Source: a virus
Lineage: Duplodnaviria > Heunggongvirae > Uroviricota > Caudoviricetes
Virus record (IMG/VR): IMGVR_UViG_3300037418_003103
Direction: 5' to 3' (one strand)
Length of the DNA: 64,000 nt
A program made the translations under genes and the position numbers. Below the pieces are notes generated by a model. It saw nothing but the letters and a program-made list of their open reading frames with translations. It searched no databases and had not been told where the DNA came from. Below, one piece after another: positions 3,494 through 43,136 of the stretch. Positions within the stretch are counted from its first letter, which is position 1. Every line of letters begins with the position of its first letter.

Positions 3494-6133
3494 TCAACAC
3501 TTTGAGAAACCACAGTTTTTACACTTCTTGCATCCTTCTTCGTAAATCATGGTTGGTTGATGACACTCAGGACATTCTTCATTAGTTGCTTCGTTAGGAA
3601 TATACTTTTTAAGCATTCTTGCAATTACTTTAGGGAATGATGTAATCTGAACTTCTGATTTCTCAACCTGTTCAGCGATGAACTTAGGGTTAGCACCATG
3701 CCTTAACAAGAGAGAAATCCATCTGGTGAGCAATTTCTCATCAGTGTGCTCCTGTGATAATTGTAAATTATCAATAGTATATTTTTCTGAAATAAATTTA
3801 TAAACACCTCTTTTTACCTTAACAATTTTACCTTTTAAATGTTCTTCAGCCGTTGGAGATTCAAAGACAAACACCTCGTAAGGTACTTCATTCATAAGAC
3901 CAACGATTACTGCATATTTTTTACCCTTAGAAGTCACGAAGTAATAATCGGCATTAAGTTCTTTAGGTCTTTTTGGTGCATCAGTATAACCAAATTTATC
4001 TACTTTTTTTGTTGGTTCATTAATTAAAACCCCTGACCTGCTCCCATCACGATATACTGTAACGCCTTTTAAACCTAGTTTCCACCCAGTCAAGTATATG
4101 TTTGCAACAGTTGATTTAGGTACATCTGTTGGAAGGTTTATAGTACAACTAAGCGCATTTGACGTGTACCTCTGAATAATAGCATTCATCTTAACCCTAT
4201 CTTCCCAGCTAATATCATTAGCTTCACTACCATACCAAGGAGATTGCTCAAATGAGTAGGATAATTCTAGTTTTGATGAATTATCTATCAGCTTTTTAGC
4301 TCCTTCATCCGTTGCTCCTTTAGATTTAAAGTTCAGTATAAGCCACTCTTTAAACTTAGGATGAAGTATTGCATATTCTTGCCATGTATCTCCATTTTGA
4401 TCTGTAAAATCAATTCTTACATTAGTATCATTAGGATTAATCTTCTTTCTCCTAATATAATAAGCTTTAAACAGAGGTTCCAAACCACTTGTTGTTTGAG
4501 TCATAAGACTTACGGTTCCTGTTGGAGCAACAGTAGACCAGCTCACGTTACGTCTCCCATTCTGAAACATTCTTTCTGCCTGGATAGGAAATTCTTCCAT
4601 AAGCATCTTGTAGAAACTATTCTTACCTACAAGTTCTCCATTCTCAATATCAAATTCAACGTCCTTATTGTGACCTTTAAACGCACCTCTAGTTATTGCC
4701 ATATCAATGCTTGCGTCAAGTTCAGCCATCATTTTTATTTTCATAACAACTTCTGCCGCATCTCGGCCATCCTGACTACCGTATTTAACATTCAATGCTG
4801 CAAGCATATCTCCCAGCGCTGTAAACCCATTCCCTGTTCTTCTGCCATCTCTCGTTGTATTTCTGATACTGGTCCATAGATTAATCTCCCTGGCTTTTAC
4901 CTCTTCTGGCTCTGGATCTTTCTTAACTTTATCTATTATTCTCTGAATGTATTGAACTTCCAGGTCGATAAGATTATCGCCAAGACGCTGTTGCATATAA
5001 GATACTTCATAAACTTTTTCTACATTAATCGCTGCATTTTCTGTAAATGGGTTATCAATAAAATAAAAGAAATTTTCGGCAATCAATCTGCATGCATCAT
5101 AATCACCCATCCATATTTCGCCGCAGGGATTACATTTAGTTGGCCGAAACCTTGGATAAACTCCATCAGGAGCATAATCCTGAATTCTGTCAATATATGC
5201 CACCCCTGGTTCTGCATTCTTCCACGCCATTTCTACAATAAGATCAAACAATTCCTTTGCATGAATTCTCATTACATATACTGGTGCCTGACTACCTTCA
5301 AGCGTTTTCATTTCGTTGTAAGGCAAATCTTGGTTAGCTTCTAATAACGAGTTAAATTTTTCTATCGGTGAGTCAATTGGAAACCTACAGAAAAAATCTG
5401 CGTCCAATTCAACCGATCTAAGGAATTCATCTGTAAGCATACTAGAAACGTTTGCTCCTGTTACCTTTGTTTTATCATCCTTAGCTGTAACAAATTTAAA
5501 TATATCTGGATGCAAGCAATGAAGCAATAGCATGAGTGCTCCTCTACGCCCATCTTGTGCAACCTCTCTGGTTGTATTACTATATCTTTCCATAAATGAA
5601 GGAACACCTGTACTAGTCTTTGCTGCATTAGATACCTTAGCTTTTGTAGGCCTTAACGAATCAAGTCTTGTACCCACGCCACCTCTGCGTTTCATTAATT
5701 GAGTTAACTCTTCGTCTGTTTTTAACAATCCTGAATATGAATCATACGGTGCTGGTATCACAAAACAATTGCTAAGGCTACCAAATACATACGGATTACC
5801 TAAGTTACTCATTATTGAGCCCTGTGGAACTATCTTTCTAAACTTCTCGAAGTATGTATATATTTCATTAACTACGTCCTTTTTGCTCTGTGATTTTCTT
5901 CTCTCGATGAGTCGTCTTCCAAAAGAAGACAAGTGATCTATATTTTTTGCCTCTATTTCTTCTCGCCTGTATGAATACTCTACTTCACCAAACTCTTTGG
6001 CAAGACGCCAATGCATATTGTCTGGCGTTGACTCCATTTCTATATTATTATCATCTTTCATCTGATATTTACTAGCCCAAGAATCAGCGGCCATTTTATC
6101 ACCATTAAAATATTCAGTTAAACTATTATCCAT
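3494..6133 (-). CDS. nrdJ: Adenosylcobalamin-dependent (class II) ribonucleotide reductase
   Basis: SLSNCFV, RRGGVG, GRRGALM, NPCGEI catalytic motif, TVAPTGTVS, KGVTVYRDGSR; C-terminal CPEC...EEGCKKCKNCGFSKC; no beta subunit adjacent. Confidence 0.9.
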   Translation of the reverse strand: MDNSLTEYFNGDKMAADSWASKYQMKDDNNIEMESTPDNMHWRLAKEFGEVEYSYRREEIEAKNIDHLSSFGRRLIERRKSQSKKDVVNEIYTYFEKFRKIVPQGSIMSNLGNPYVFGSLSNCFVIPAPYDSYSGLLKTDEELTQLMKRRGGVGTRLDSLRPTKAKVSNAAKTSTGVPSFMERYSNTTREVAQDGRRGALMLLLHCLHPDIFKFVTAKDDKTKVTGANVSSMLTDEFLRSVELDADFFCRFPIDSPIEKFNSLLEANQDLPYNEMKTLEGSQAPVYVMRIHAKELFDLIVEMAWKNAEPGVAYIDRIQDYAPDGVYPRFRPTKCNPCGEIWMGDYDACRLIAENFFYFIDNPFTENAAINVEKVYEVSYMQQRLGDNLIDLEVQYIQRIIDKVKKDPEPEEVKAREINLWTSIRNTTRDGRRTGNGFTALGDMLAALNVKYGSQDGRDAAEVVMKIKMMAELDASIDMAITRGAFKGHNKDVEFDIENGELVGKNSFYKMLMEEFPIQAERMFQNGRRNVSWSTVAPTGTVSLMTQTTSGLEPLFKAYYIRRKKINPNDTNVRIDFTDQNGDTWQEYAILHPKFKEWLILNFKSKGATDEGAKKLIDNSSKLELSYSFEQSPWYGSEANDISWEDRVKMNAIIQRYTSNALSCTINLPTDVPKSTVANIYLTGWKLGLKGVTVYRDGSRSGVLINEPTKKVDKFGYTDAPKRPKELNADYYFVTSKGKKYAVIVGLMNEVPYEVFVFESPTAEEHLKGKIVKVKRGVYKFISEKYTIDNLQLSQEHTDEKLLTRWISLLLRHGANPKFIAEQVEKSEVQITSFPKVIARMLKKYIPNEATNEECPECHQPTMIYEEGCKKCKNCGFSKC

Positions 6134-30888: not shown

Positions 30889-30970
30889 GATATTTTTTAT
30901 TTAAATATAGATGTATAAGGTTTTTTGTAAAGTGGATTTACATTTTAAAATTATTTATTATCATCCTAGT

Positions 30971-31354
30971 ATGATATATTATCCAAACGTTATAAATGAT
31001 GATACAGATCCCACAGAAATAATTCAAAAGTGGGAGTCAAGAGCAATGCTTGATGATGTTAATAACAAGATAAATATATCTATTGCCTTCGAATTACTAG
31101 GTGGATATATTATGAGTAATGATTATTATGTAAAGCCTTGTTCTGTTGTGGTTCCTACGTTGTTTCCGATATTAAAGAGGCTACTTAATGATGAAGAATA
31201 TGAAATGAAGTGGCAGGACATTAATAAAGTGGTTATTAAGGTGTTAGAGACTTATCCTAAAGAACACATGAAGATGCTGGAAGAACATAAGGCTCTCCTA
31301 GCCGACATGGAATTTTCTCTTTTTAACAACTTTTGTAATAATTTTAATAATTAA
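30971..31354 (+). CDS. Hypothetical protein
   Basis: ORF-track frame; ATG at 30971 preferred; IIQKWE motif also occurs in the next ORF. Confidence 0.55.
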   Translation: MIYYPNVINDDTDPTEIIQKWESRAMLDDVNNKINISIAFELLGGYIMSNDYYVKPCSVVVPTLFPILKRLLNDEEYEMKWQDINKVVIKVLETYPKEHMKMLEEHKALLADMEFSLFNNFCNNFNN

Positions 31355-31370
31355 AATAATTTATGGGAAT

Positions 31371-31514
31371 ATGTTAGGACCGATATTAAGCAGAGAACAG
31401 GAGATAAGAAATGAGTTAGTAGAATTAATTCAGAAATGGGAATTAATGCCAGATAGAGAGGCGTGTCAACCAATGATCAATGCCTACAAAGAAATGCTCA
31501 AAAAATTTCTATAG
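31371..31514 (+). CDS. Small hypothetical protein (47 aa)
   Basis: MLGPILSREQEIRNELVELIQKWELMPDREACQPMINAYKEMLKKFL; not in track. Confidence 0.45.
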   Translation: MLGPILSREQEIRNELVELIQKWELMPDREACQPMINAYKEMLKKFL

Positions 31515-31532
31515 TATATTTTTTGAACTTTA

Positions 31533-31564
31533 TTTGGTAATTTAATTTTTTTAGTGTATGTTTG
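31533..31564 (+). promoter_or_regulatory. Bacteroidota-type promoter (TTTG-N20-TATGTTTG) driving the tRNA
   Basis: TTTG at 31533-36 and TATGTTTG at 31557-64; tRNA starts at 31574. Confidence 0.7.
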
Positions 31565-31573
31565 TATTCAAAT

Positions 31574-31647
31574 AGCGAGGTAGAGCAGTTGAGTAGCTCG
31601 TCTGGCTCATAACCAGAAGGTCGGCAGTTCGAGTCTGCCCTTCGCTA
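31574..31647 (+). tRNA. tRNA-Met (anticodon CAT)
   Basis: Acceptor AGCGAGG/CTTCGCT, D-arm GAGC/GCTC, anticodon arm TCTGG-CTCATAA-CCAGA, T-arm GGCAG-TTCGAGT-CTGCC; CCA not encoded. Confidence 0.9.
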
Positions 31648-31657
31648 CAAAAATAAT

Positions 31658-31963
31658 ATGCTAGTTACAAAATATTTTTTATTTTCTATTTTTACTCTTA
31701 TTACAACCTTAAGTGTAACAATATATTTACACTGGGAAGAAATTAAAAAAAATATAGGGCTTATATCATTGCCATCTAAATCTTTATTGATTAAAGATTT
31801 TTTAGTAATTCTTTGTATTTGTCTTTTTGCAATAGGATGTGCTGGCTTATTTGTAGTAGAATCTATAGATGATATAAATAAAAAATATAAAGTTTTTTAT
31901 GCTGCAATATTTTTATTATTTTCAGTAATGCTGATAACAGGTAATATTTTATCTTTAAAATAA
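31658..31963 (+). CDS. Hypothetical membrane protein (about 3 TM segments)
   Basis: 101 aa hydrophobic ORF. Confidence 0.6.
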   Translation: MLVTKYFLFSIFTLITTLSVTIYLHWEEIKKNIGLISLPSKSLLIKDFLVILCICLFAIGCAGLFVVESIDDINKKYKVFYAAIFLLFSVMLITGNILSLK

Positions 31964-32035
31964 GTCACATTCTTTATAGTTGTCTACTGTGGACATGAAC
32001 CTTCGGAATGTATAAAAAATGAAAGGGATATTTCA

Positions 32036-32189
32036 GTGGTGACCTCTGAGAGAGCACACAGAGCACTTTAATGGTATTGAAAAAAGCACCTCAATACAAA
32101 AAAACTAATCAGTTCGCCAAGCAATAATTTGGCAGGGGGAGAAAGCTACTCTCTGACAAGGTTAAGTACGACTATACTTAACCTTTTTT
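32036..32189 (+). ncRNA. Candidate structured small RNA (four hairpins plus terminator)
   Basis: CTCTG/CAGAG, GTATTGA/TCAATAC, GCCAA/TTGGC and CAGGGGG/CTCTCTG stems, then terminator AAGGTTAAGTA/TACTTAACCTT-TTTT. Confidence 0.4.
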
Positions 32190-32195
32190 ATTTTA

Positions 32196-32227
32196 TTTGG
32201 CCATTTGATTTTTTTAGTGTATATTTG
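32196..32227 (+). promoter_or_regulatory. Bacteroidota-type promoter (TTTG-N20-TATATTTG)
   Basis: Consensus elements and spacing upstream of the ORF at 32259. Confidence 0.7.
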
Positions 32228-32258
32228 CACTACTAAATCATTTTAAATTTATAGATCG

Positions 32259-32567
32259 TTGAGAAATAAGGTGTATTACGAGTGGGATATAGAGACCACT
32301 AATGAGGAAGGTGAGATTTATGACCATAACTTTGCGGATACACTTTCGGAGGTTGTTCTAACGGAAGGTGACTTGGTGCTTATTAGAAGCGTGGGTAATG
32401 AGAATACTGGACTGGTTGATAGATCTTGGGCTTATGTTAAGGACGGTAAGTTGCCAGCGTGTTTTTATGATGGTTGTGAAAATAATACTGCGGTGCCAGT
32501 GCCTAAGAGGTTTGTTAGCGAATTAGAAAAAAAACTTAAACAAAACAAATGTTTTAACTTGAAATGA
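32259..32567 (+). CDS. Hypothetical protein
   Basis: 102 aa ORF directly after a promoter. Confidence 0.6.
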   Translation: MRNKVYYEWDIETTNEEGEIYDHNFADTLSEVVLTEGDLVLIRSVGNENTGLVDRSWAYVKDGKLPACFYDGCENNTAVPVPKRFVSELEKKLKQNKCFNLK

Positions 32568-32747
32568 TTGTTCAAATTAAGTAATGATAGAAAATGAAAC
32601 GAAAAAATCACATAAAGGCTGATAATGACTCTTTAAGAGGTGTGGGAAAATTGGAATACTCCGAATCTAGTAGGCTTCACGCTACTCTAAAACGACTAAC
32701 ATAAACCTTTACTAATAACAATAAAAAATTTTTAAAATTAGATTAAA

Positions 32748-33041
32748 ATGGGATATTTTGCAGATGAATTTAAAAAAATATTATCAGGTTTACCTAAACC
32801 TGCCAAAGAGAAATCTATTAAAAATGGTAAAAGGTGTAAACATTTAAATGGTATTTTAGACGAACACCTTGATGCTACACACACAAGAGATATTGAAAAT
32901 GGTGTTGTGGATAAGATTGGATATAATGAACCTGGTAATTTAACACACTATGAATTTACTTGTTCAGACTGTAATAAAACATTTAAATGGAAATCATTTT
33001 TTAATTGCCCAAAATGGGCAAAAAAATATGAACTATTCTAA
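32748..33041 (+). CDS. Hypothetical protein, possible Zn-binding
   Basis: CKH...CSDC...C. Confidence 0.6.
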   Translation: MGYFADEFKKILSGLPKPAKEKSIKNGKRCKHLNGILDEHLDATHTRDIENGVVDKIGYNEPGNLTHYEFTCSDCNKTFKWKSFFNCPKWAKKYELF

Positions 33042-33074
33042 TAATAATTTTTTTAAGGAAATAAAGTAAAATAT

Positions 33075-33620
33075 ATGTTTATACTACCATTATATAAAGA
33101 TGTATATGCTCCAGTAGGCAGCGTAACAAGGTTAGAAACTGAAATCTCTTGGGAGAATGTTCAGTCTGCAAGAGGCGAGTGCTTTATGTCGGATGAAACC
33201 AAAGAGTATCAATATATTAAAGATGGACCTGTGTATACTTCAGTACCATTCCATCCTATGGTTAAGGGGTTGATGGAGCAACTGAATAATGATTTTGGTT
33301 ATAATATGAATGTTTGCTTCCTGAATTATTATTCAGACCACACCAAGGCTCTTGGATGGCATTCTGATGATTCACCACCTATTGACCAGTCCCAACCCAT
33401 ATGTGTGATATCACTTGGGCAACCCAGAGAAATTTGGTGGAAATTTATTGGGGCTAAAGGGATTGTACCAGCAGAGAATAAACAGCTTCTTTCTGATGGC
33501 TCATTATTCATAATGCCACCTGGAATGCAAGATATTTACTGTCATAAAATACCAAAGGGTGACAGACAAATGACAACACGTATTTCACTCACATATAGAT
33601 CCTGGAAGGCTGGATTTTAA
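33075..33620 (+). CDS. AlkB-family 2OG-Fe(II) dioxygenase
   Basis: FLNYY...LGWHSDD (HxD), ISLG, GSLFIM, HKIPK, RISLTYR. Confidence 0.9.
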   Translation: MFILPLYKDVYAPVGSVTRLETEISWENVQSARGECFMSDETKEYQYIKDGPVYTSVPFHPMVKGLMEQLNNDFGYNMNVCFLNYYSDHTKALGWHSDDSPPIDQSQPICVISLGQPREIWWKFIGAKGIVPAENKQLLSDGSLFIMPPGMQDIYCHKIPKGDRQMTTRISLTYRSWKAGF

Positions 33621-33639
33621 AAATAGATTAAAAAATGAT

Positions 33640-33942
33640 TTGGATACCAATATTAATACTTTATTTATCAATTTACATTTTTTGGGAAAGCAAGTTTTCA
33701 AGGCTAAAAAAAAAAATGATGAATGGATTAAAATTGATGGAGAAGAAACGTTTCCAGAAACGCATATAGACGTACTTACATTTAATGTTAAGGACGGAAA
33801 CCCCACTCCTTTTATTGTTGATTTCTGCTTTATTGGAGAAGATGAGAAAATTCATTGGGATTGGGGCGAAAATAATCCAACACATTGGATGCCGTTGCCT
33901 GAACGTCCAAAACAAGAATCTAAAGGATCTGTCATTGAATAA
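33640..33942 (+). CDS. DUF551-like phage protein
   Basis: EWIKI...P...THWMPLPERP signature. Confidence 0.7.
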   Translation: MDTNINTLFINLHFLGKQVFKAKKKNDEWIKIDGEETFPETHIDVLTFNVKDGNPTPFIVDFCFIGEDEKIHWDWGENNPTHWMPLPERPKQESKGSVIE

Positions 33943-33943
33943 A

Positions 33944-34222
33944 ATGTTTTACAAGATATTGAAAAAAATAATGATAAAAGGAAAAATATTTGATAATACG
34001 CCGAGTGGTCGCACACTCTCAAAGAGAAGAGATGCGGCTTTAGATACAACTAAAGCAATGGGCCATGAAATGTCGGAGTATATTCATAAAGAATTAAAAA
34101 ATGAGAATTACTTATTATGGGTGTGTAATAAGTGTGGACTCACTCTTAAAATGGATTTCATAAGTGGTACAGAGATAGGTGGAGCATTAATACATCCATG
34201 CAGGGGAAAGTCCTGGTTATAA
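33944..34222 (+). CDS. Hypothetical protein with possible Zn site
   Basis: GHEM...CNKCG...HPC; ATG directly after the previous stop (track start 33785 is likely too far upstream). Confidence 0.55.
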   Translation: MFYKILKKIMIKGKIFDNTPSGRTLSKRRDAALDTTKAMGHEMSEYIHKELKNENYLLWVCNKCGLTLKMDFISGTEIGGALIHPCRGKSWL

Positions 34223-34235
34223 TTTATAAATAACC

Positions 34236-34330
34236 GCTGAGGTTCATAGAGGAATCAACAGGCAGACCTATTATTTAGGGATCATCTGAATAATGTTACT
34301 GTTGCGTAGGTTCAAGTCCTACTCTCAGCA
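34236..34330 (+). ncRNA. tRNA-like RNA 1 (acceptor stem and T-arm, no canonical anticodon arm)
   Basis: GCTGAGG/TCTCAGC-A acceptor; GTAGG-TTCAAGT-CCTAC T-arm; interior is a long stem CAACAG/CTGTTG with nested CAGA/TCTG and CCTA/TAGG. Confidence 0.6.
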
Positions 34331-34419
34331 CTGGGGATAGTAACGAGATTCTTGTAGCAAACGACCCCGAAAACGGTTAAGGGCAAGATGGGCAGGCTGG
34401 GAAGACAGACACTTTTTAA

Positions 34420-34549
34420 GGTGTAATGGCGGAAGCAAACGCTAAGTGGAATGGTAATAGATCTTAACTCCAGACTACAGGAAGAGCACGAGGGCAGTAA
34501 AACCTTACGACTGTATTCTTCTTTGCGGGTTCGAGTCCTGCTTACACCA
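34420..34549 (+). ncRNA. tRNA-like RNA 2 (130 nt; ~80-nt structured insert replacing the anticodon/variable arms)
   Basis: GGTGTAA/TTACACC-A acceptor; D-stem GCG/CGC; T-arm GCGGG-TTCGAGT-CCTGC; inner TGGA/TCCA, TACAG/CTGTA and GAGG/CCTT stems. Confidence 0.6.
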
Positions 34550-34638
34550 CAAAACGAAGTAATGGTTACATGTACCACTGTAACCATTAGCAGGTCGTTA
34601 AATCGGCCTATCTTTTTAATAAAATTAAAAATACATAT

Positions 34639-35106
34639 ATGAAAAAACAAATCAGGAAAGGAGTGTTTGAAACGAATAGCTCAAGTACTCACAGTATTTG
34701 CATCGCAAAAGATGTTGAACTGGATATTCCAAAAACGCTACAATTTAAATTTGGAGAATTCGGATGGGAAGAGGATACTCTTAGTTCCACGTTCGAAAAA
34801 GCAAGTTATTTATTCACTGGATTAATGGGTAATAATAGAAACTCAGATTTTGATAACATAGTTGAAACATTAAAAGAAAAGGGTATTGAAGTGTCATATG
34901 AAACAGCTATAGATGGTTGTGACGGTTATGTTGATCACTCTTATGAGTTAACTGATTTCTTGAACGCTATATGTAGCAGCGAAAAAAAGCTTTTTGACTT
35001 CCTATTTTCACCTTTAAGTTTTATCATTACAGGTAATGATAATTCAGATTCTGATGTAGAAATAAAAGCTGATTATCCACATGACGAATACTATAAAGGA
35101 AACTAA
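34639..35106 (+). CDS. Conserved phage protein with N-terminal IRxGVFETNSSSTHS motif
   Basis: MKKQIRKGVFETNSSSTHSICI...GEFGWE...GYVDH...ITGNDN; stop overlaps the radical SAM start. Confidence 0.75.
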   Translation: MKKQIRKGVFETNSSSTHSICIAKDVELDIPKTLQFKFGEFGWEEDTLSSTFEKASYLFTGLMGNNRNSDFDNIVETLKEKGIEVSYETAIDGCDGYVDHSYELTDFLNAICSSEKKLFDFLFSPLSFIITGNDNSDSDVEIKADYPHDEYYKGN

Positions 35107-35996
35107 TGGAACAAATAGCAACGTATCGTAATGGCAATACCTGTGTTACAATACTTCAGGATGGTACTAAGATAAGAGAGTATGAAGACTCTCCTGAAAT
35201 TATACATCCTGAAAGCATCGATATTAAAATTACAGACTACTGTGACATGGGTTGTGCTTACTGTCATGAGAGCTCAACAACCGCTGGTAAGCACGCTGAT
35301 TTAAGTGAATTACTAAGGGTAATATCAGATCTTCCTGCGGGTGTTGAACTTGCTATTGGCGGTGGGAATCCTCTCTCACACCCTGATTTAAAGAAGTTTC
35401 TTTTGGATCTTAAAAGAAGAGGTATTATCGCCAACATAACCGTAAATCAGGGCCATTTAAAGTCTTATTATGAGCTTATAAGAGAATTAATAAGCGACGG
35501 ATTGATACATGGCCTTGGAATATCCATAACTAGCAATAATTTTACTTATGTTAAGAAAATTAATGAACTCAGCAGTAATGTTGTGTTCCATGTGATAGCA
35601 GGGGTTAACGATATTAGTATTATTGATAGGCTGATGGAATTTTGTGAACCAAAGATTTTAATACTCGGATATAAAACATTCGGCTTTGGTATTCAATATT
35701 ATTCACCAGAGGTTGAATTAGGCATCAATTCGTGGAAAAGAGGCCTTAGAAGGTATGTTGGGAAAGTGAGCCTCTCTTTTGATAACCTGGCCATTGAACA
35801 ATTATCAGTACGAAGACTTTTTACACATGAGGGATGGGAGAAGTTTTATATGGGTGATGACTTCTGTTTTACCATGTATATCGATGCTGTTAAGCAAGAG
35901 TACGGACCAACAAGCAGAAGTAATGACAGGGTTTCCTTTGATAAATCATCTTTATTAGAGTATTTTAAAAACAATAATTTAAATAAAGTCATATGA
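35106..35996 (+). CDS. Radical SAM protein
   Basis: CDMGCAYC (CxxxCxxC), AIGGGNPLSHP, NITVN. Confidence 0.9.
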   Translation: MEQIATYRNGNTCVTILQDGTKIREYEDSPEIIHPESIDIKITDYCDMGCAYCHESSTTAGKHADLSELLRVISDLPAGVELAIGGGNPLSHPDLKKFLLDLKRRGIIANITVNQGHLKSYYELIRELISDGLIHGLGISITSNNFTYVKKINELSSNVVFHVIAGVNDISIIDRLMEFCEPKILILGYKTFGFGIQYYSPEVELGINSWKRGLRRYVGKVSLSFDNLAIEQLSVRRLFTHEGWEKFYMGDDFCFTMYIDAVKQEYGPTSRSNDRVSFDKSSLLEYFKNNNLNKVI

Positions 35997-36142
35997 GTTA
36001 CGAACCGACGATAATAATTAAAAGGGAAGACTCTAACAAATAGGGTATTTATACCGAAAAATTAGATAAATGAATATGATATATAAAACCAGGCTCAGAA
36101 ATCATTGTACACATTGAATCATTATTAGATTCCATAATTAAA
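35993..36142 (+). pseudogene. Possible decayed gene remnant
   Basis: ATGA-coupled start MSYEPTIIIKREDSNK*, then the same frame continues GIYTEKLDK*I*YIKPGSEIIVHIESLLDSIIK*. Confidence 0.3.
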
Positions 36143-37685
36143 TAGTTAAAAGCCATTTTTTACATCCACAATCGTATATTCTTGGAATTTCTCTTTCCTT
36201 CATAATCTGTCTTTCTGATTTATTTTTATCAAATCCATTCTTAACTAGGATATCTTTTCTATATTTAAATCTGTTTTCACGTTTATGATTTAAGATGTAG
36301 AAGTAGTTGGGATGCGATTCAGAAATAAGTGAAAATCCAGTATTTTTATACACGTCTCCATTAAAATATCTGTTATCTGAATAGGTTAGTAAAGATTCAG
36401 GATGATATGTCTTTATGAAATGTTTAATAAGTCTTGAAAAAGCACCAACAACTGTAGTATTTAATTTATTACAGAATCTAAGAAGCTCATAAGCTCCATT
36501 CTTAGATTTAGCTCCTAAATTTTTCCTTAAACCACCGAAGGTCATTAAAGAGACAAGTTTATTTTCATAAAATAAACCAATACTAACTCTTGCATATACA
36601 TTACCCTGGATATGGTTGGTATTTAGAAAGTCCTTTGCATCAGAATTGGAAACTTCTTTAATTTCTGTTTTTCTTGCAACTACTCTATTGGTGTTTTTAC
36701 CTATTTTACTCATCAGAATACTCTTCACAATGTCTTTTTTATTTATCCATTCGTCTTCGAATATATGAATTAGTTCTATACCAACTTCTCTACACATTTT
36801 TGTCTTTATGAGATGATAGTCATCCTCAACAAATAGGTCTGAATGCCAATAAATACCATTAAACTCAATTGCTATATTTTTACTCGGCAGTAATATGTCC
36901 AGCTCGTATGGCGATATGATGTTTCTATTACCCTCAACAACTTCTTCCTCTGGCAAAAGTTCTTTAATAAATTGAATAACATCTTTTTCATGAAATGAAT
37001 CACAAGATCCTATCGGATTACATTTAGTGCATGGGTTAATTCCGTTTTTAAGCCTATAATTTAGAAGGTTATGATATATTTTGTATTCCTTATTACAAAT
37101 ACTGCATTCCAGAATTATATTTGTATCGTTCGTATCGTATTTCAACACTTTGTCATTAGACTCTCTATTAATACGTTTTATAAAATTTTCCCTTAATGTA
37201 ACATTACTCTTATTCTTATTGTTTGAAGACCCATATTTAATTTTCCTAGTCTTTATACCCTTCTGAAAGTTATTATAATTTTCATCACCATATTTATTTA
37301 ACTTTGTTTGTTTAACCTTACTAGTAAAAGATTCGTGTTTTGAGAATGCGGATACACCGTACTTGGCTTTTAGAACTGCTGAGGCTCTTTCTTGTATAAT
37401 GTTACTTGAATTAGCACATTTTAGCGAACAAAAATCAGAATATCCCTTATCCAGGGTTTTTTTTATAGAAACTTGATTTCCACAATTAAGACATGTGGGT
37501 ATACATGGATCATTGTTCATGAAGTGCCATACTTGTTGCTTGAAAGGAAGAAGCTTTAATGGTTCGTACTGGTTTACAAAGGCTAAAAGTGCTTCATAGA
37601 TTTCTGGCTCACTTGATCGTAAATATGATGGTTTTGTTTTCCAACCAGATTTATTATCGTTTAAAAAAAATTTTTTGTAATCCAT
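36138..37685 (-). CDS. Putative homing endonuclease copy 1 (Zn motifs + PD-(D/E)xK/Vsr-like nuclease + Mom-like GNAT domain)
   Basis: ELDILLPSKNIAIEFNGIYWH; IHIFEDEW; ARK...NHIQG...ELLRFC...TYSDNR...RIYDCG. Confidence 0.7.
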   Translation of the reverse strand: MDYKKFFLNDNKSGWKTKPSYLRSSEPEIYEALLAFVNQYEPLKLLPFKQQVWHFMNNDPCIPTCLNCGNQVSIKKTLDKGYSDFCSLKCANSSNIIQERASAVLKAKYGVSAFSKHESFTSKVKQTKLNKYGDENYNNFQKGIKTRKIKYGSSNNKNKSNVTLRENFIKRINRESNDKVLKYDTNDTNIILECSICNKEYKIYHNLLNYRLKNGINPCTKCNPIGSCDSFHEKDVIQFIKELLPEEEVVEGNRNIISPYELDILLPSKNIAIEFNGIYWHSDLFVEDDYHLIKTKMCREVGIELIHIFEDEWINKKDIVKSILMSKIGKNTNRVVARKTEIKEVSNSDAKDFLNTNHIQGNVYARVSIGLFYENKLVSLMTFGGLRKNLGAKSKNGAYELLRFCNKLNTTVVGAFSRLIKHFIKTYHPESLLTYSDNRYFNGDVYKNTGFSLISESHPNYFYILNHKRENRFKYRKDILVKNGFDKNKSERQIMKEREIPRIYDCGCKKWLLTI

Positions 37686-38296: not shown

Positions 38297-38385
38297 TTTT
38301 ATTTACTTTTTAATTTTTTATTAGTATTATTGTTGAAATAAGTTTATCCTTATTCAATAATAAATATAAGTAATTGGAAAATAGT

Positions 38386-40056
38386 ATGGATTATTCAGAT
38401 TTTTTTTTAGATAATAAAAGAAACGGGTATAAGACACGAGAAAAATATCTACAGGAACACTTTAACGAGATATATCGGATGGTTATTAAGCATGCAGAAA
38501 CATATAATTTAAACAACTTACCGTTTAAAGAAAAGATATGGCATTTTATAAATGATTCTAGATCACCTAAGGTTTGCGAAGAGTGTGGTGTATTACTTAA
38601 ATTTAAGAGAAGTCTCTTAGAGGGCTATGGTAAATACTGTTCTCTCACTTGTTGTAATAAGCATGAAGGGCATATAAAAAGTACAATGGCAAGCAAGAAA
38701 ATATGGAGAGCCAATTTAAGTGATGAAGAACGAGAGGAACAAGTTCAGAAAGTAAAACAAGGAGTCCTTAAAAAATATGGTGTTGATAATTATTCAAATT
38801 TTAAAGAATTTAGATCTTCTGAAACTGCAGCTAATACTAATAAGTTTATTAAATTAAGCAAAGATAGGTATAAGAATTACTATGATTATTCTATGGTTGA
38901 ATACAGGGATATTAATTCAGAGGTTAAAATCATTTGTCCTATTCATGGCATTTTTAAAACCACACCTAAACTACATCTGCACCATGGTGTTGGTTGCAAG
39001 AAGTGCTCCTGTAGAATGGATACTGATAAGTTTATCTTAAAATGTACTCAGATTCATGACGGTAAGTATGATTATAGCAAGGTTAACTATATAACCAATA
39101 CAACTCCTATTCATATAATCTGTCCAGTGCATGGAGATTTCAAGCAAAAACCACACAAGCACTTGCTTGGACACGGATGCAGAAAATGTGGGAATGCTCG
39201 TCACCTATCAGAAAATAGTCTTAAAGAATTCATTCGGTCACTTAATATTGATTTTCTTGAGAATACCCGCGCCCTTATTAGGAAGAGGGAAATAGATATT
39301 TACATCCCTTCACATAATTTAGCAATTGAATTCAATGGATTGTATTGGCATAATGAACTCTTTGTTGATAGCAACTACCACTTAGAGAAAACGAGTATGT
39401 GTGAAGAAAAAGGGATAAGGCTCATACATGTTTTTGAGGATGAATGGATGTTTAAAAAAGAAGTCGTAAAAAGCAGGATTAGGAACATCTTAGGAATAAG
39501 CGGAGATAGAATATATGCTAGAAAGTGTGAAATAAAAGAAATAAAAGCTAAGGACGCCAGGATTTTTCTTGATCAGAATCACCTGCAGGGCTATAGTGTT
39601 TCAAGCTGTAATGTCGGATTATTTTATAAAGATGAATTGGTTTCATTGATGGCCTTTGTCAAACCCAGGCTTGGTATAGGAAATAATAAATCTGAATATA
39701 TAGAATTAAGTAGATTTGCTAATAAATTAGACACAATCGTTGTTGGCGGGGCTAGTAAACTCCTAAAATACTATGTAAGAACATATGAGCCAAGTAAGAT
39801 AATTAGTTATGCTGATATAAGGTGGTCTAGAGGCGAATTATACGAGCAACTTGGATTCATAAAAACCCATACAAATAAACCTAATTATTGGTATGTTATT
39901 AATGCAGAGAGGAAGCACAGATTTCTTTTTAGAAAATCAAAACTAAAAAAAGATGGCTTTGATATTGAAAATAAAACTGAACATCAAATAATGCTTGATC
40001 GGAAAATATATCGAATTTATGACTGCGGTACAATTCATTTTGAACTTATTATTTGA
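38386..40056 (+). CDS. Putative homing endonuclease copy 2
   Basis: Two YDYS...ICPxHG...GCxKC repeats (DUF723-like); EIDIYIPSHNLAIEFNGLYWH; same C-terminal domain as copies 1 and 3. Confidence 0.7.
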   Translation: MDYSDFFLDNKRNGYKTREKYLQEHFNEIYRMVIKHAETYNLNNLPFKEKIWHFINDSRSPKVCEECGVLLKFKRSLLEGYGKYCSLTCCNKHEGHIKSTMASKKIWRANLSDEEREEQVQKVKQGVLKKYGVDNYSNFKEFRSSETAANTNKFIKLSKDRYKNYYDYSMVEYRDINSEVKIICPIHGIFKTTPKLHLHHGVGCKKCSCRMDTDKFILKCTQIHDGKYDYSKVNYITNTTPIHIICPVHGDFKQKPHKHLLGHGCRKCGNARHLSENSLKEFIRSLNIDFLENTRALIRKREIDIYIPSHNLAIEFNGLYWHNELFVDSNYHLEKTSMCEEKGIRLIHVFEDEWMFKKEVVKSRIRNILGISGDRIYARKCEIKEIKAKDARIFLDQNHLQGYSVSSCNVGLFYKDELVSLMAFVKPRLGIGNNKSEYIELSRFANKLDTIVVGGASKLLKYYVRTYEPSKIISYADIRWSRGELYEQLGFIKTHTNKPNYWYVINAERKHRFLFRKSKLKKDGFDIENKTEHQIMLDRKIYRIYDCGTIHFELII

Positions 40057-41324: not shown

Positions 41325-43136
41325 ATGTACAAATTAACTACACTAGCAACATTTCTTGAAAGAGCTAAAGAAGTTCATGGTGATAAATATGATTATTCGG
41401 AAGTAGAATACAATGGAACTAAACACAAGGTCAGTATCATTTGTAAGGAACACGGACATTTTTTAATGACTCCAGAAAAACATATAGCAAGAAAACAAGG
41501 CTGTCCATTTTGTGCGGGATTAATTAAAACCACCGAAAACTTTATAAAGAGATCCGAAGCTGTTCATGGAAAGAGGTATGATTATTCTGTTTCTAAATTT
41601 ACTGCTTCTTATAACAAAATTGATATAATTTGTAGAGAACATGGGTTGTTTTCTCAAACAGCAATAGGCCATTATTCTGGCGGTCATTGCCCTAAGTGTG
41701 TGGGTAAGAATAAGACAAACGAGGAAGTAGTTCAAAAATTTATAGAAGTTCATGGCGATAAATATGATTATAGTCTTATAGATTATAAAGGTCAAAGAAA
41801 TAAGATGAGTATAATTTGTCCAAAGCATGGAATATTTAAACAAACATTTAATATACATAAAAAGGGGCATGGATGCCCTATCTGTGCTGGTGCTATTGTA
41901 TCAACTAATCATTTCATTGAAAAAGCAAAATTGGTTCACGGAAACAAATTTGATTATTCTGAATCTAAGTATATTAATAGCAATAAAAAAATTAAAATTA
42001 TCTGTTCAATTCATGGGGCTTTTTATCAAAAGCCTAATAATCATTTACAGGGGCAAGGTTGTCCTAACTGTAAGGGAATGAGTATCACTGAAAAGAAAAC
42101 GAAGTCTACTGAAGAATATATTAAAGAAGCATTTAATGTTCATGGAGATAAATATGATTATTCACAAGTTGAATACGTAGGATGCAGGGATAAAATAAAT
42201 ATCCTGTGTAAAAAGCATGGTGTATTTTCGCAAGATCCTGATTCGCATTTACATGGGGCTGGATGTCCTAAGTGCGGCGTTATTGTTACTCAGAGCGAGA
42301 ATGAAATAAAAACATTCATACATGAACTTGGAATTGGTTTTGAGGATAATGACAGAAATGTTCTTGATGGGCTTGAAATTGACATACTGATACCTGAAAA
42401 AAGAATAGCTATTGAATATGATGGCATTTATTGGCACTCTGAGAAATTTATTGAAAGAAATTTTCATTTAAATAAGACACAAGAAGCAGAAAAAGCTGGT
42501 TACAATTTAATACATATTTTCGAGGATGAATGGAAGAACAAGCCAGAAGTAGTCAAATCCAGGCTTAGAAACATATTGGGTAAAACACCCTATAAATTAT
42601 ATGCAAGAAAATGTCTCATTAAAGAAGTAAACTCATCTGATTCCATAAGATTTTTAGATGTGAGCCATTTACAAGGAGGCGTTAATTCATCAGTTCGATT
42701 GGGACTGTATTATGATAATGAATTAGTTTCATTGATGACCTTTGGTAGAGGTAGATTGGCTATGGGAGGTAATTCTGATCAATTTGAACTGGTTAGATTC
42801 TGTAATAAATTAAATACAAGTGTTATAGGCGCAGCAAGTAGATTACTATCTTATTTCATTAAAAAATATATCCCTAAAGAGATTATATCTTATGCTGATA
42901 AGAGATGGTCAGTGGGTGACCTGTATGATAAGTTAGGTTTTATTAAGACACATGAATCCAGGCCTAACTATTGGTACGTTATTGGAAAAAGCAGAAAACA
43001 CAGGTTTGGTTTTAGGAAATCAATTCTTGTTAAACAGGGCTATGATGCTTCTAAGTCGGAACATGAAATTATGCTTGACCGAAAAATATATAGAATATAT
43101 GATTGTGGTACAATAGTATATAAAAAAACTCTCTAA
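41325..43136 (+). CDS. Putative homing endonuclease copy 3
   Basis: Five tandem HGxKYDYS...ICxxHGxF...GCPxC repeats; EIDILIPEKRIAIEYDGIYWH; C-terminal SYADKRW...RIYDCG. Confidence 0.75.
   Translation: MYKLTTLATFLERAKEVHGDKYDYSEVEYNGTKHKVSIICKEHGHFLMTPEKHIARKQGCPFCAGLIKTTENFIKRSEAVHGKRYDYSVSKFTASYNKIDIICREHGLFSQTAIGHYSGGHCPKCVGKNKTNEEVVQKFIEVHGDKYDYSLIDYKGQRNKMSIICPKHGIFKQTFNIHKKGHGCPICAGAIVSTNHFIEKAKLVHGNKFDYSESKYINSNKKIKIICSIHGAFYQKPNNHLQGQGCPNCKGMSITEKKTKSTEEYIKEAFNVHGDKYDYSQVEYVGCRDKINILCKKHGVFSQDPDSHLHGAGCPKCGVIVTQSENEIKTFIHELGIGFEDNDRNVLDGLEIDILIPEKRIAIEYDGIYWHSEKFIERNFHLNKTQEAEKAGYNLIHIFEDEWKNKPEVVKSRLRNILGKTPYKLYARKCLIKEVNSSDSIRFLDVSHLQGGVNSSVRLGLYYDNELVSLMTFGRGRLAMGGNSDQFELVRFCNKLNTSVIGAASRLLSYFIKKYIPKEIISYADKRWSVGDLYDKLGFIKTHESRPNYWYVIGKSRKHRFGFRKSILVKQGYDASKSEHEIMLDRKIYRIYDCGTIVYKKTL

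Follow-up and report, generated by a model that had tools for sequence, protein, structure and literature searches.

The RNAs most similar to those reported here are the species 1 (rnaC) and species 2 (rnaD) RNAs of phage T4, which are stable, non-decoding RNAs of 120 to 140 nt encoded in a tRNA cluster; they are expressed late, and their function is unknown (PMC9697503). Oversized tRNAs termed "intron-containing" have been described in Lak megaphages (Devoto et al. 2019, PMC6784885), and the YrlA Y RNAs, found with Ro60, are bacterial and phage tRNA mimics that are handled by tRNA enzymes (Chen et al. 2014, PMC4201824). Other points of comparison are the tRNA-like domain of tmRNA, class II tRNA-Leu (RF00005), and the allo-tRNAs with their 8/4 or 9/3 acceptor branch (Mukai et al., PMC5389517). 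For the protein genes, the closest described systems are SkfB and SuiB (PDB 6efn and 5v1t), peptide maturases that act on a short precursor peptide.

The window analyzed here (64,000 nt) originates from a complete jumbo phage genome of 345,454 nt with terminal repeats, and a search of public runs showed that the DNA of this phage occurs in soil and rhizosphere metagenomes; no RNA run was among those listed, which has no bearing on expression. The locus contains two tRNA-like elements, in which a tRNA-like frame (shell) surrounds a centre without an anticodon arm, followed by the genes for a protein with an N-terminal ETNSSS motif and for a radical SAM enzyme (Table 1). We lean towards the view that these are two independent modules lying side by side, namely, non-decoding tRNA-shell RNAs and a protein-modifying radical SAM maturase. 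Both modules are apparently undescribed; the shells represent a variant of the type of RNA known from T4 rnaC, and the tag-directed enzyme represents a variant of the peptide maturases.

Table 1. Features of the locus, with positions in the window
Feature	Coordinates	Strand	Characteristics
tRNA-Met(CAT), ordinary	31574..31648	+	head of the island, behind a TAnnTTTG promoter-like site
AlkB-like 2OG-Fe(II) oxygenase gene	33075..33620	+	PF13532, 71 bits
Element 1, tRNA-like, 95 nt	34236..34330	+	acceptor 7 bp; A73; single long helix 34256-34304; T arm 34306-34322
Spacer, 89 nt	34331..34419	+	G+C above genome level
Element 2, tRNA-Leu-type shell, 130 nt	34420..34549	+	acceptor 7/7; T stem 5/5; U48; A73; Leu-type D arm 34427-34442; centre 34443-34524 (82 nt); T arm 34525-34541
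11-bp hairpin in the 3' trailer	34560..34589	+	from folding
Terminator-like hairpin with T run	34592..34617	+	hairpin 34592-34609; separates the RNAs from the protein genes
ETNSSS protein gene, 155 aa	34639..35106	+	N-terminal tag R6..FETNSSSxH18
Radical SAM enzyme gene, 296 aa	35106..35996	+	PF04055, 46 bits, above cut-off; C46, C50, C53

The island and its two tRNA-like elements

Both RNAs and both protein genes are located in a plus-strand island (30911-35996) that interrupts a minus-strand tail operon. In 67 relatives, which were found via the tail tube protein, the syntenic interval measured 123 to 3842 nt, compared with 6920 nt in the present phage, and no ETNSSS gene, radical SAM gene, AlkB-like gene, or T arm was detected in any of the 80 loci compared. 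Since the island genes and the T arm are missing from the syntenic site of relatives, the island is lineage-specific. An assembly artefact could be ruled out because independent contigs match exactly: a 418-nt contig from a 2020 soil run covers 34184-34601 with 0 differences, and a JGI contig is identical across 5043 nt. The TAnnTTTG motif, which also precedes the tRNA-Met, peaks 20 to 29 nt upstream of start codons and corresponds to the -7 promoter element of Bacteroidota; the host of the phage is probably a member of the Bacteroidota. Three related large nuclease-like genes (36138-37685, 38374-40056, and 41325-43136) flank the tail tube and sheath genes.

The sequence TATAAATA at 34226 was considered as a T4-type late promoter of the RNAs and rejected because the phage's own upstream motif is its reverse complement. 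Read on the minus strand, this late-promoter-like motif (34226-34233) is directed from the RNAs toward the interrupted tail operon, where it may allow late transcription to resume on the other side of the island. A plus-strand copy at 34221, with one mismatch, is a possible late promoter for the RNAs.

The initial annotation had described elements of 95 and 130 nt with intact 7-bp acceptors, a discriminator A, and T arms, in which the anticodon region is replaced. All of this was found, with the acceptor of element 1 consisting of 6 Watson-Crick pairs and 1 G-U pair and its T stem being paired 5/5. The two elements thus share with canonical tRNA (RF00005) the 7-bp acceptor, the 5-bp T stem with a TTCRA loop, and the discriminator; the canonical 5-bp anticodon stem with its 7-nt loop (U33, purine 37) is missing from both, and neither encodes CCA. 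ARAGORN and Rfam, both proposed as checks in the initial annotation, called neither element, and the Rfam scan returned only the tRNA-Met. Two defects had been overlooked: the D loop of element 2 lacks G18G19, and the D arm of element 1 is collapsed and almost stemless, although it keeps a GG. T arm and acceptor occur together in 11 elements of the genome, whereas 20 genomes simulated with a Markov model contained 0.0 such elements on average.

The folding of the whole elements yielded z values of -3.6 (element 1) and -2.4 (element 2). The extended stem claimed for element 1 is indeed structured (centre z -2.6) and replaces both the anticodon and the variable arms, whereas the multibranch insert claimed for element 2 turned out to be weakly structured (centre z -1.0). 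Similarly, the spacer is GC-rich as described but not significantly structured (z +1.3), since 183 of 200 shuffles folded equally well. The two downstream hairpins are present, with a joint z of -4.8. The second of them is a terminator-like site, and the notion that the RNAs lead the operon was not confirmed; the terminator assignment is weak because 3 such sites were found and 1.3 are expected by chance.

Each of the described RNAs resembles the elements only in part. T4 rnaC likewise has a canonical T arm, and its 3' end is tRNA-like, but the T arm is preceded by a long 5' domain without a Leu-type D arm, whereas in the present elements the complete acceptor stem encloses the extra sequence; there is no sequence similarity to rnaC or rnaD. 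Element 1 is similar to the tRNA-like domain of tmRNA in its stemless D region, its one long helix, and its very short T-stem junction. However, the G3-U70 pair of tmRNA is absent, both elements having U3-A70, there is neither a tag frame nor an RF00023 match at the site, and the complete genome contains no tmRNA and no SmpB. The idea that the spacer encodes a tag in the manner of tmRNA was also rejected, no tmRNA frame being present. Element 2 is similar to class II tRNA-Leu in its D-arm sequence, A14/A15-U48, A73, and the 7/5 acceptor-T stack, whereas the 82-nt centre, the lack of an anticodon arm and of G18G19, and the lack of an Rfam or ARAGORN call set it apart. Both elements have a 7/5 branch, in contrast to the allo-tRNAs, and they differ from the YrlA RNAs in that they have no Rfam match and that the complete genome contains no TROVE gene.

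No homolog of element 1 was found. In an exact-pattern search of viral contigs, its acceptor and T arm were shared with one ordinary phage tRNA-Ser(GCT), and its central-helix pattern matched 117 stretches, none of which was a homolog; the exact T-arm pattern of element 2 had no match in viral contigs. When the RNAs, the spacer, and the hairpins were compared by blastn with cultured phages and with loci totalling 5.2 Mb, only T-arm or chance matches resulted, and no spacer homolog was found.

The genome contains six further enlarged tRNA-like genes, all far from the radical SAM enzyme. In two of these, which lie outside the window (C1:48420-48542 (+) and C1:98365-98492 (+)), one deletion would generate Lys(TTT)- and Val(CAC)-like arms, with chance rates of 0.22 and 0.07, respectively, and these are possible Lak-type inserts. 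The remaining four, also on the plus strand, are C1:89084-89267, which is Trp-like with inserts in the D loop and the anticodon loop, C1:98912-99001, C1:99175-99304, which has an intact stem, a G33 loop, and a variable region of two hairpins, and C1:114898-115028. Several aberrant anticodon loops were observed in the main tRNA cluster (C1:332884-337460 (+)), and a D-armless UAU tRNA-like gene is located near C1:333894.

A class of phage RNAs with a tRNA-Leu frame

Viral and genome collections were searched with a pattern composed of a Leu D arm, a gap of 62 to 92 nt, and a T loop, which retrieved at least 88 distinct viral copies of a class of RNAs with genes of 110 to 140 nt. Element 2 is an atypical member that fits the class except for G18G19, a membership that is partly built in because the pattern was drawn partly from element 2 itself. 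Acceptor pairing, U48, and A73 are features outside the search pattern. The acceptor was paired 7/7 in 86 of the 112 unfiltered matches listed and 5-6/7 in just 3, while a slid acceptor control gave at most 5/7 pairs. Among the matches listed, U48 was kept in 84 of 88 members (background, 26%), A73 was present in 69 of 88, and one single acceptor sequence was common to 33 members; G18G19 was found in 80 of 88 and was lacking, as in element 2, in 8. The centres are 60 to 90 nt long and contain no anticodon. Their median identity was 0.47, compared with 0.46 after shuffling, the 88 members formed 75 centre clusters, and the best class match of the element 2 centre had an identity of 0.55 (all among the matches listed). 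A few centres recur across different phages. Taken together, these comparisons indicate that the shell is under selection, as a conserved frame around exchangeable centres. The designation of the RNAs as anticodon-less tRNA mimics was therefore upheld, with conserved acceptor/T-arm frames and relatives in many phages, whereas conservation of the inserts, the lack of which the initial annotation had named as evidence against its reading, was not found.

Relatives of the present phage also carry Leu-shell genes, and half of the class genes are located within 1 kb of another T loop (among the matches listed). ARAGORN in default mode called only 1 of 90 class members (among the matches listed). 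The literature searched, which included neither subscription journals nor the 10,006 models of PMC10690425, contained no description of the class. In a related jumbo phage, two enlarged Leu-type shells (L261:2050-2466 and 3497-3955) are located about 1 kb upstream of a gene that, judged by eye, resembles SmpB, and tmRNA-like 3' ends are present in the relatives L246, L250, and L264. Three loci have a second T arm inside the shell centre (L311:3050-3244 (-), L301:7915-8098 (-), and L275:3330-3478 (+)), and this nesting of one tRNA-like unit in another recalls the Thr insert of Lak phages.

With the Lak phages the present case shares enlarged tRNA genes in huge Bacteroidota phages that standard scans miss, and the introns proposed for the Lak genes (PMC6784885) raise the alternative that the RNAs are spliced to normal tRNAs, as the initial annotation had also considered. 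A weak RNA ligase match in the genome (C1:344285-344545 (+), 21 bits, below cut-off) and the 73 class members called by ARAGORN -i (among the matches listed) are in line with such splicing. However, in neither element 1 nor element 2 did any single deletion produce a perfectly paired anticodon stem closed by a 7-nt loop with U33 and R37. The same test restored 8 of 88 class members (among the matches listed), close to the null mean of 7.2 (range, 1 to 17), whereas in the positive control, archaeal tRNA-Leu genes that contain introns and match the same pattern, it restored 19 of 19. The ARAGORN -i calls were rejected because shuffled centres are called as often (70 to 81 of 88, among the matches listed), and this mode never called elements 1 or 2. 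Furthermore, the Lak genes retain the anticodon and its stem intact in their exons and have conserved inserts, whereas the present elements have no restorable arm and the class centres are unrelated. The complete genome encodes neither a splicing endonuclease nor RtcB. We consequently regard introns as highly improbable.

Elements 1 and 2 may be decaying, because both have elbow defects and no homologs of either centre were found. They could even be functionless pseudo-tRNAs, relics in an insertion-prone island, and the other aberrant tRNA genes of the genome and the absence of the island from relatives would agree with this. Such a loss of function is unlikely in our opinion: the acceptor and T stems are fully paired, with the one G-U pair in element 1, U48 (element 2) and A73 are retained, and the 7/7 acceptor peak of the class, with almost no 5-6/7 cases, is unlike uniform decay.

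Another possibility is that the shell serves as a scaffold for processing and stability and that the variable centre is the working part, for instance as an antisense RNA, an aptamer, or a protein sponge. A strict shell around unrelated centres, a few of which recur in different phages, is what would be expected in this case, and the folding of the class centres is slightly more stable than that of shuffled sequences (mean z -0.9, with 18% below -2; element 1, z -2.6). On the other hand, most centres are weakly structured, no Rfam family, CRISPR repeats included, was matched at the two elements, and the longest matches of the two centres to their own genome (15 and 13 nt) are at chance level (null up to 15-16 nt), so self-targeting was rejected. 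A working centre thus appears doubtful, although it deserves the same weight as decay.

The ETNSSS protein and the radical SAM enzyme

The two open reading frames of the initial annotation were confirmed and overlap by 1 base. The ETNSSS protein has at least 2751 homologous clusters but no Pfam or NCBIfam family, and no description of the motif was found in the literature searched, which did not extend to subscription journals. The pair also occurs in cultured phages, namely, Microcystis Ma-LMM01/MaMV, and the radical SAM family was present within the ETNSSS locus in 132 of 163 cases, some of the loci being cut short. The motif starts at residue 4 to 6 in nearly all copies, and R6 and H18 are invariant (223/223), although they lie outside the search pattern. 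There are up to six motif copies per locus, on proteins of differing length that share the N-terminal motif only. The confident model of the ETNSSS protein had no match among solved structures (best Z, 2.3) and no Foldseek match at an E value of 0.001; the Atlas yielded nothing but viral clusters without names and one partial, Tad2-like row (TM 0.64/0.40). These empty fold searches on a model do not prove that the fold is new.

The CxxxCxxC motif and a partial TIM barrel place the enzyme in the radical SAM superfamily. Only C46, C50, and C53 are conserved, all three being invariant, and there are no cysteines for SPASM/Twitch auxiliary clusters. Compared with viperin, MoaA, and the named NCBIfam radical SAM families, the best score was 35 bits, with cut-offs of at least 131. 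The enzyme model (pLDDT 94) is closest in fold to SkfB (Z 20.4, rmsd 3.3, 264 residues aligned), followed by SuiB (Z 18.1, rmsd 4.2, 281 aligned) and viperin (Z 16.9, rmsd 3.1, 225 aligned), whereas the RNA-modifying enzymes Cfr (Z 8.7) and TYW1 (Z 8.2) are more distant.

The predicted complex of the two proteins had a score of 0.87, whereas the best of 3 controls scored 0.00; solved pairs attain the mark applied in 58 of 80 cases and mismatched pairs in 2 of 110, counts that are rough for the alignments used. The runs agreed in at least 37% of contacts, with a partner pLDDT of at least 71. In the model, partner residues 2 to 8 pair with strand 20-25 of the N-terminal three-stranded sheet of the enzyme, and the chain as far as residue 26 touches those strands of the barrel on which the invariant E81, T112, H162, K183, D226, and N227 are located. 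As compared to an RRE, the three N-terminal strands are present and are bound to the tag in the model, while the three helices are missing. The predicted arrangement resembles SkfB and SuiB, in which an N-terminal peptide is bound by strand addition and the next residues enter the barrel. It differs from them in that the enzyme has neither the SPASM/Twitch cysteines nor the helices of a full RRE, and in that the putative substrate is the N terminus of a folded 155-aa protein. The model supports the N-terminal tag as a candidate substrate of the enzyme; likeness to solved maturase-peptide complexes may contribute to this prediction.

Alternatively, the enzyme could act on a small molecule, like viperin, with the ETNSSS protein plugging the barrel as an inhibitor, cap, or activator. 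Such a plug would yield the same complex model, and the similarity to viperin in fold, the weak viperin and MoaA profile matches, far below cut-off, and the missing auxiliary cluster would be compatible with it. Nevertheless, a locus can encode several different tagged proteins with nothing but the N-terminal motif in common, as expected of clients, and the enzyme's highest-scoring and longest structural alignments are to peptide maturases, N-terminal sheet included, so that a small-molecule substrate seems to us quite unlikely, more so than decay of the RNAs. As for the favored modification of the partner, tag residues 2 to 8 would add as a strand to the N-terminal sheet, the FETNSSSTH stretch would enter the barrel, and the 5'-deoxyadenosyl radical would abstract a hydrogen from a Ser, Thr, or Asn of the tag. 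Because the enzyme has a single cluster, a redox-neutral change in the Ser-rich stretch, either epimerisation or dehydration, is our first guess.

The initial annotation had united the RNAs and the protein pair in one candidate system and had named the lack of such RNAs at ETNSSS/radical SAM loci elsewhere as evidence against it. That lack is what we observed. The viral and metagenome collections yielded 162 ETNSSS loci. In the 155 that extended at least 500 nt upstream of the ETNSSS gene, no T arm occurred within that distance (0/155, near-duplicates included and hence not independent events). Ten further nearest homologs (57 to 70% identity) from a second collection were preceded by unrelated genes or short gaps, and none had an upstream T loop in the DNA covered (0/10). 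Conversely, neither an ETNSSS nor a radical SAM protein was encoded in 85 viral Leu-shell loci (0.75 Mb, among the matches listed). Since loci with the proteins lack the RNAs and vice versa, the two modules do not form one system and, judged by these sequence comparisons, are chance neighbors. A role for the RNAs as substrate, guide, or cis-regulator of the pair is accordingly very hard to maintain, even though they are adjacent on the same strand, with 89 nt between element 2 and the start codon, and readthrough of the weak terminator is possible. The substrate or guide role is further disfavored because the predicted occupant of the barrel is the N-terminal peptide of the ETNSSS protein, and RNA-modifying radical SAM folds rank much lower structurally. 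The most likely target of the enzyme is thus the partner protein and not the RNAs.

Possible functions of the shells and significance

RNase P, the CCA-adding enzyme, and EF-Tu recognize the acceptor-T stack and the elbow. The shells would be transcribed and then cut by RNase P and 3' nucleases, and CCA would be added by the phage's own CCA-adding enzyme (C1:155021-155386 (-), 121 bits). As stable ligands with the shape of a tRNA, they could then keep tRNA-binding proteins of the host occupied, of which tRNA-sensing or tRNA-cleaving defences would be the likeliest targets; shells would offer no anticodon loop for cleavage and would be unfit for decoding. Most plausibly, they would be decoys against tRNA-targeting defences. 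The LeuRS of Escherichia coli requires A73 and the D/T-loop contacts of G18/G19, not the anticodon (PMC9976931). Typical class members carry the bacterial leucine identity set and may be leucylated; element 2, without G18G19, is probably not leucylated.

A broader and more tentative reading, which we consider improbable as a whole, is that the tRNA-Leu frame is a reusable phage chassis with an exchanged centre and that the adjoining enzyme performs an undescribed protein modification directed by an N-terminal tag. If so, host and phage tRNA enzymes would mature and stabilize the shell, element 2 being one example, the centre would carry a counter-defence or regulatory function, and the modification would sit on the N-terminal tag of folded phage proteins. 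The ETNSSS/radical SAM pair now has a specific, testable structural hypothesis. The Leu-shell class is invisible to standard annotation or mislabelled as intron tRNAs; it would extend the long-standing question posed by T4 rnaC to many phages and is relevant to the ways in which phages cope with tRNA-targeting defences.
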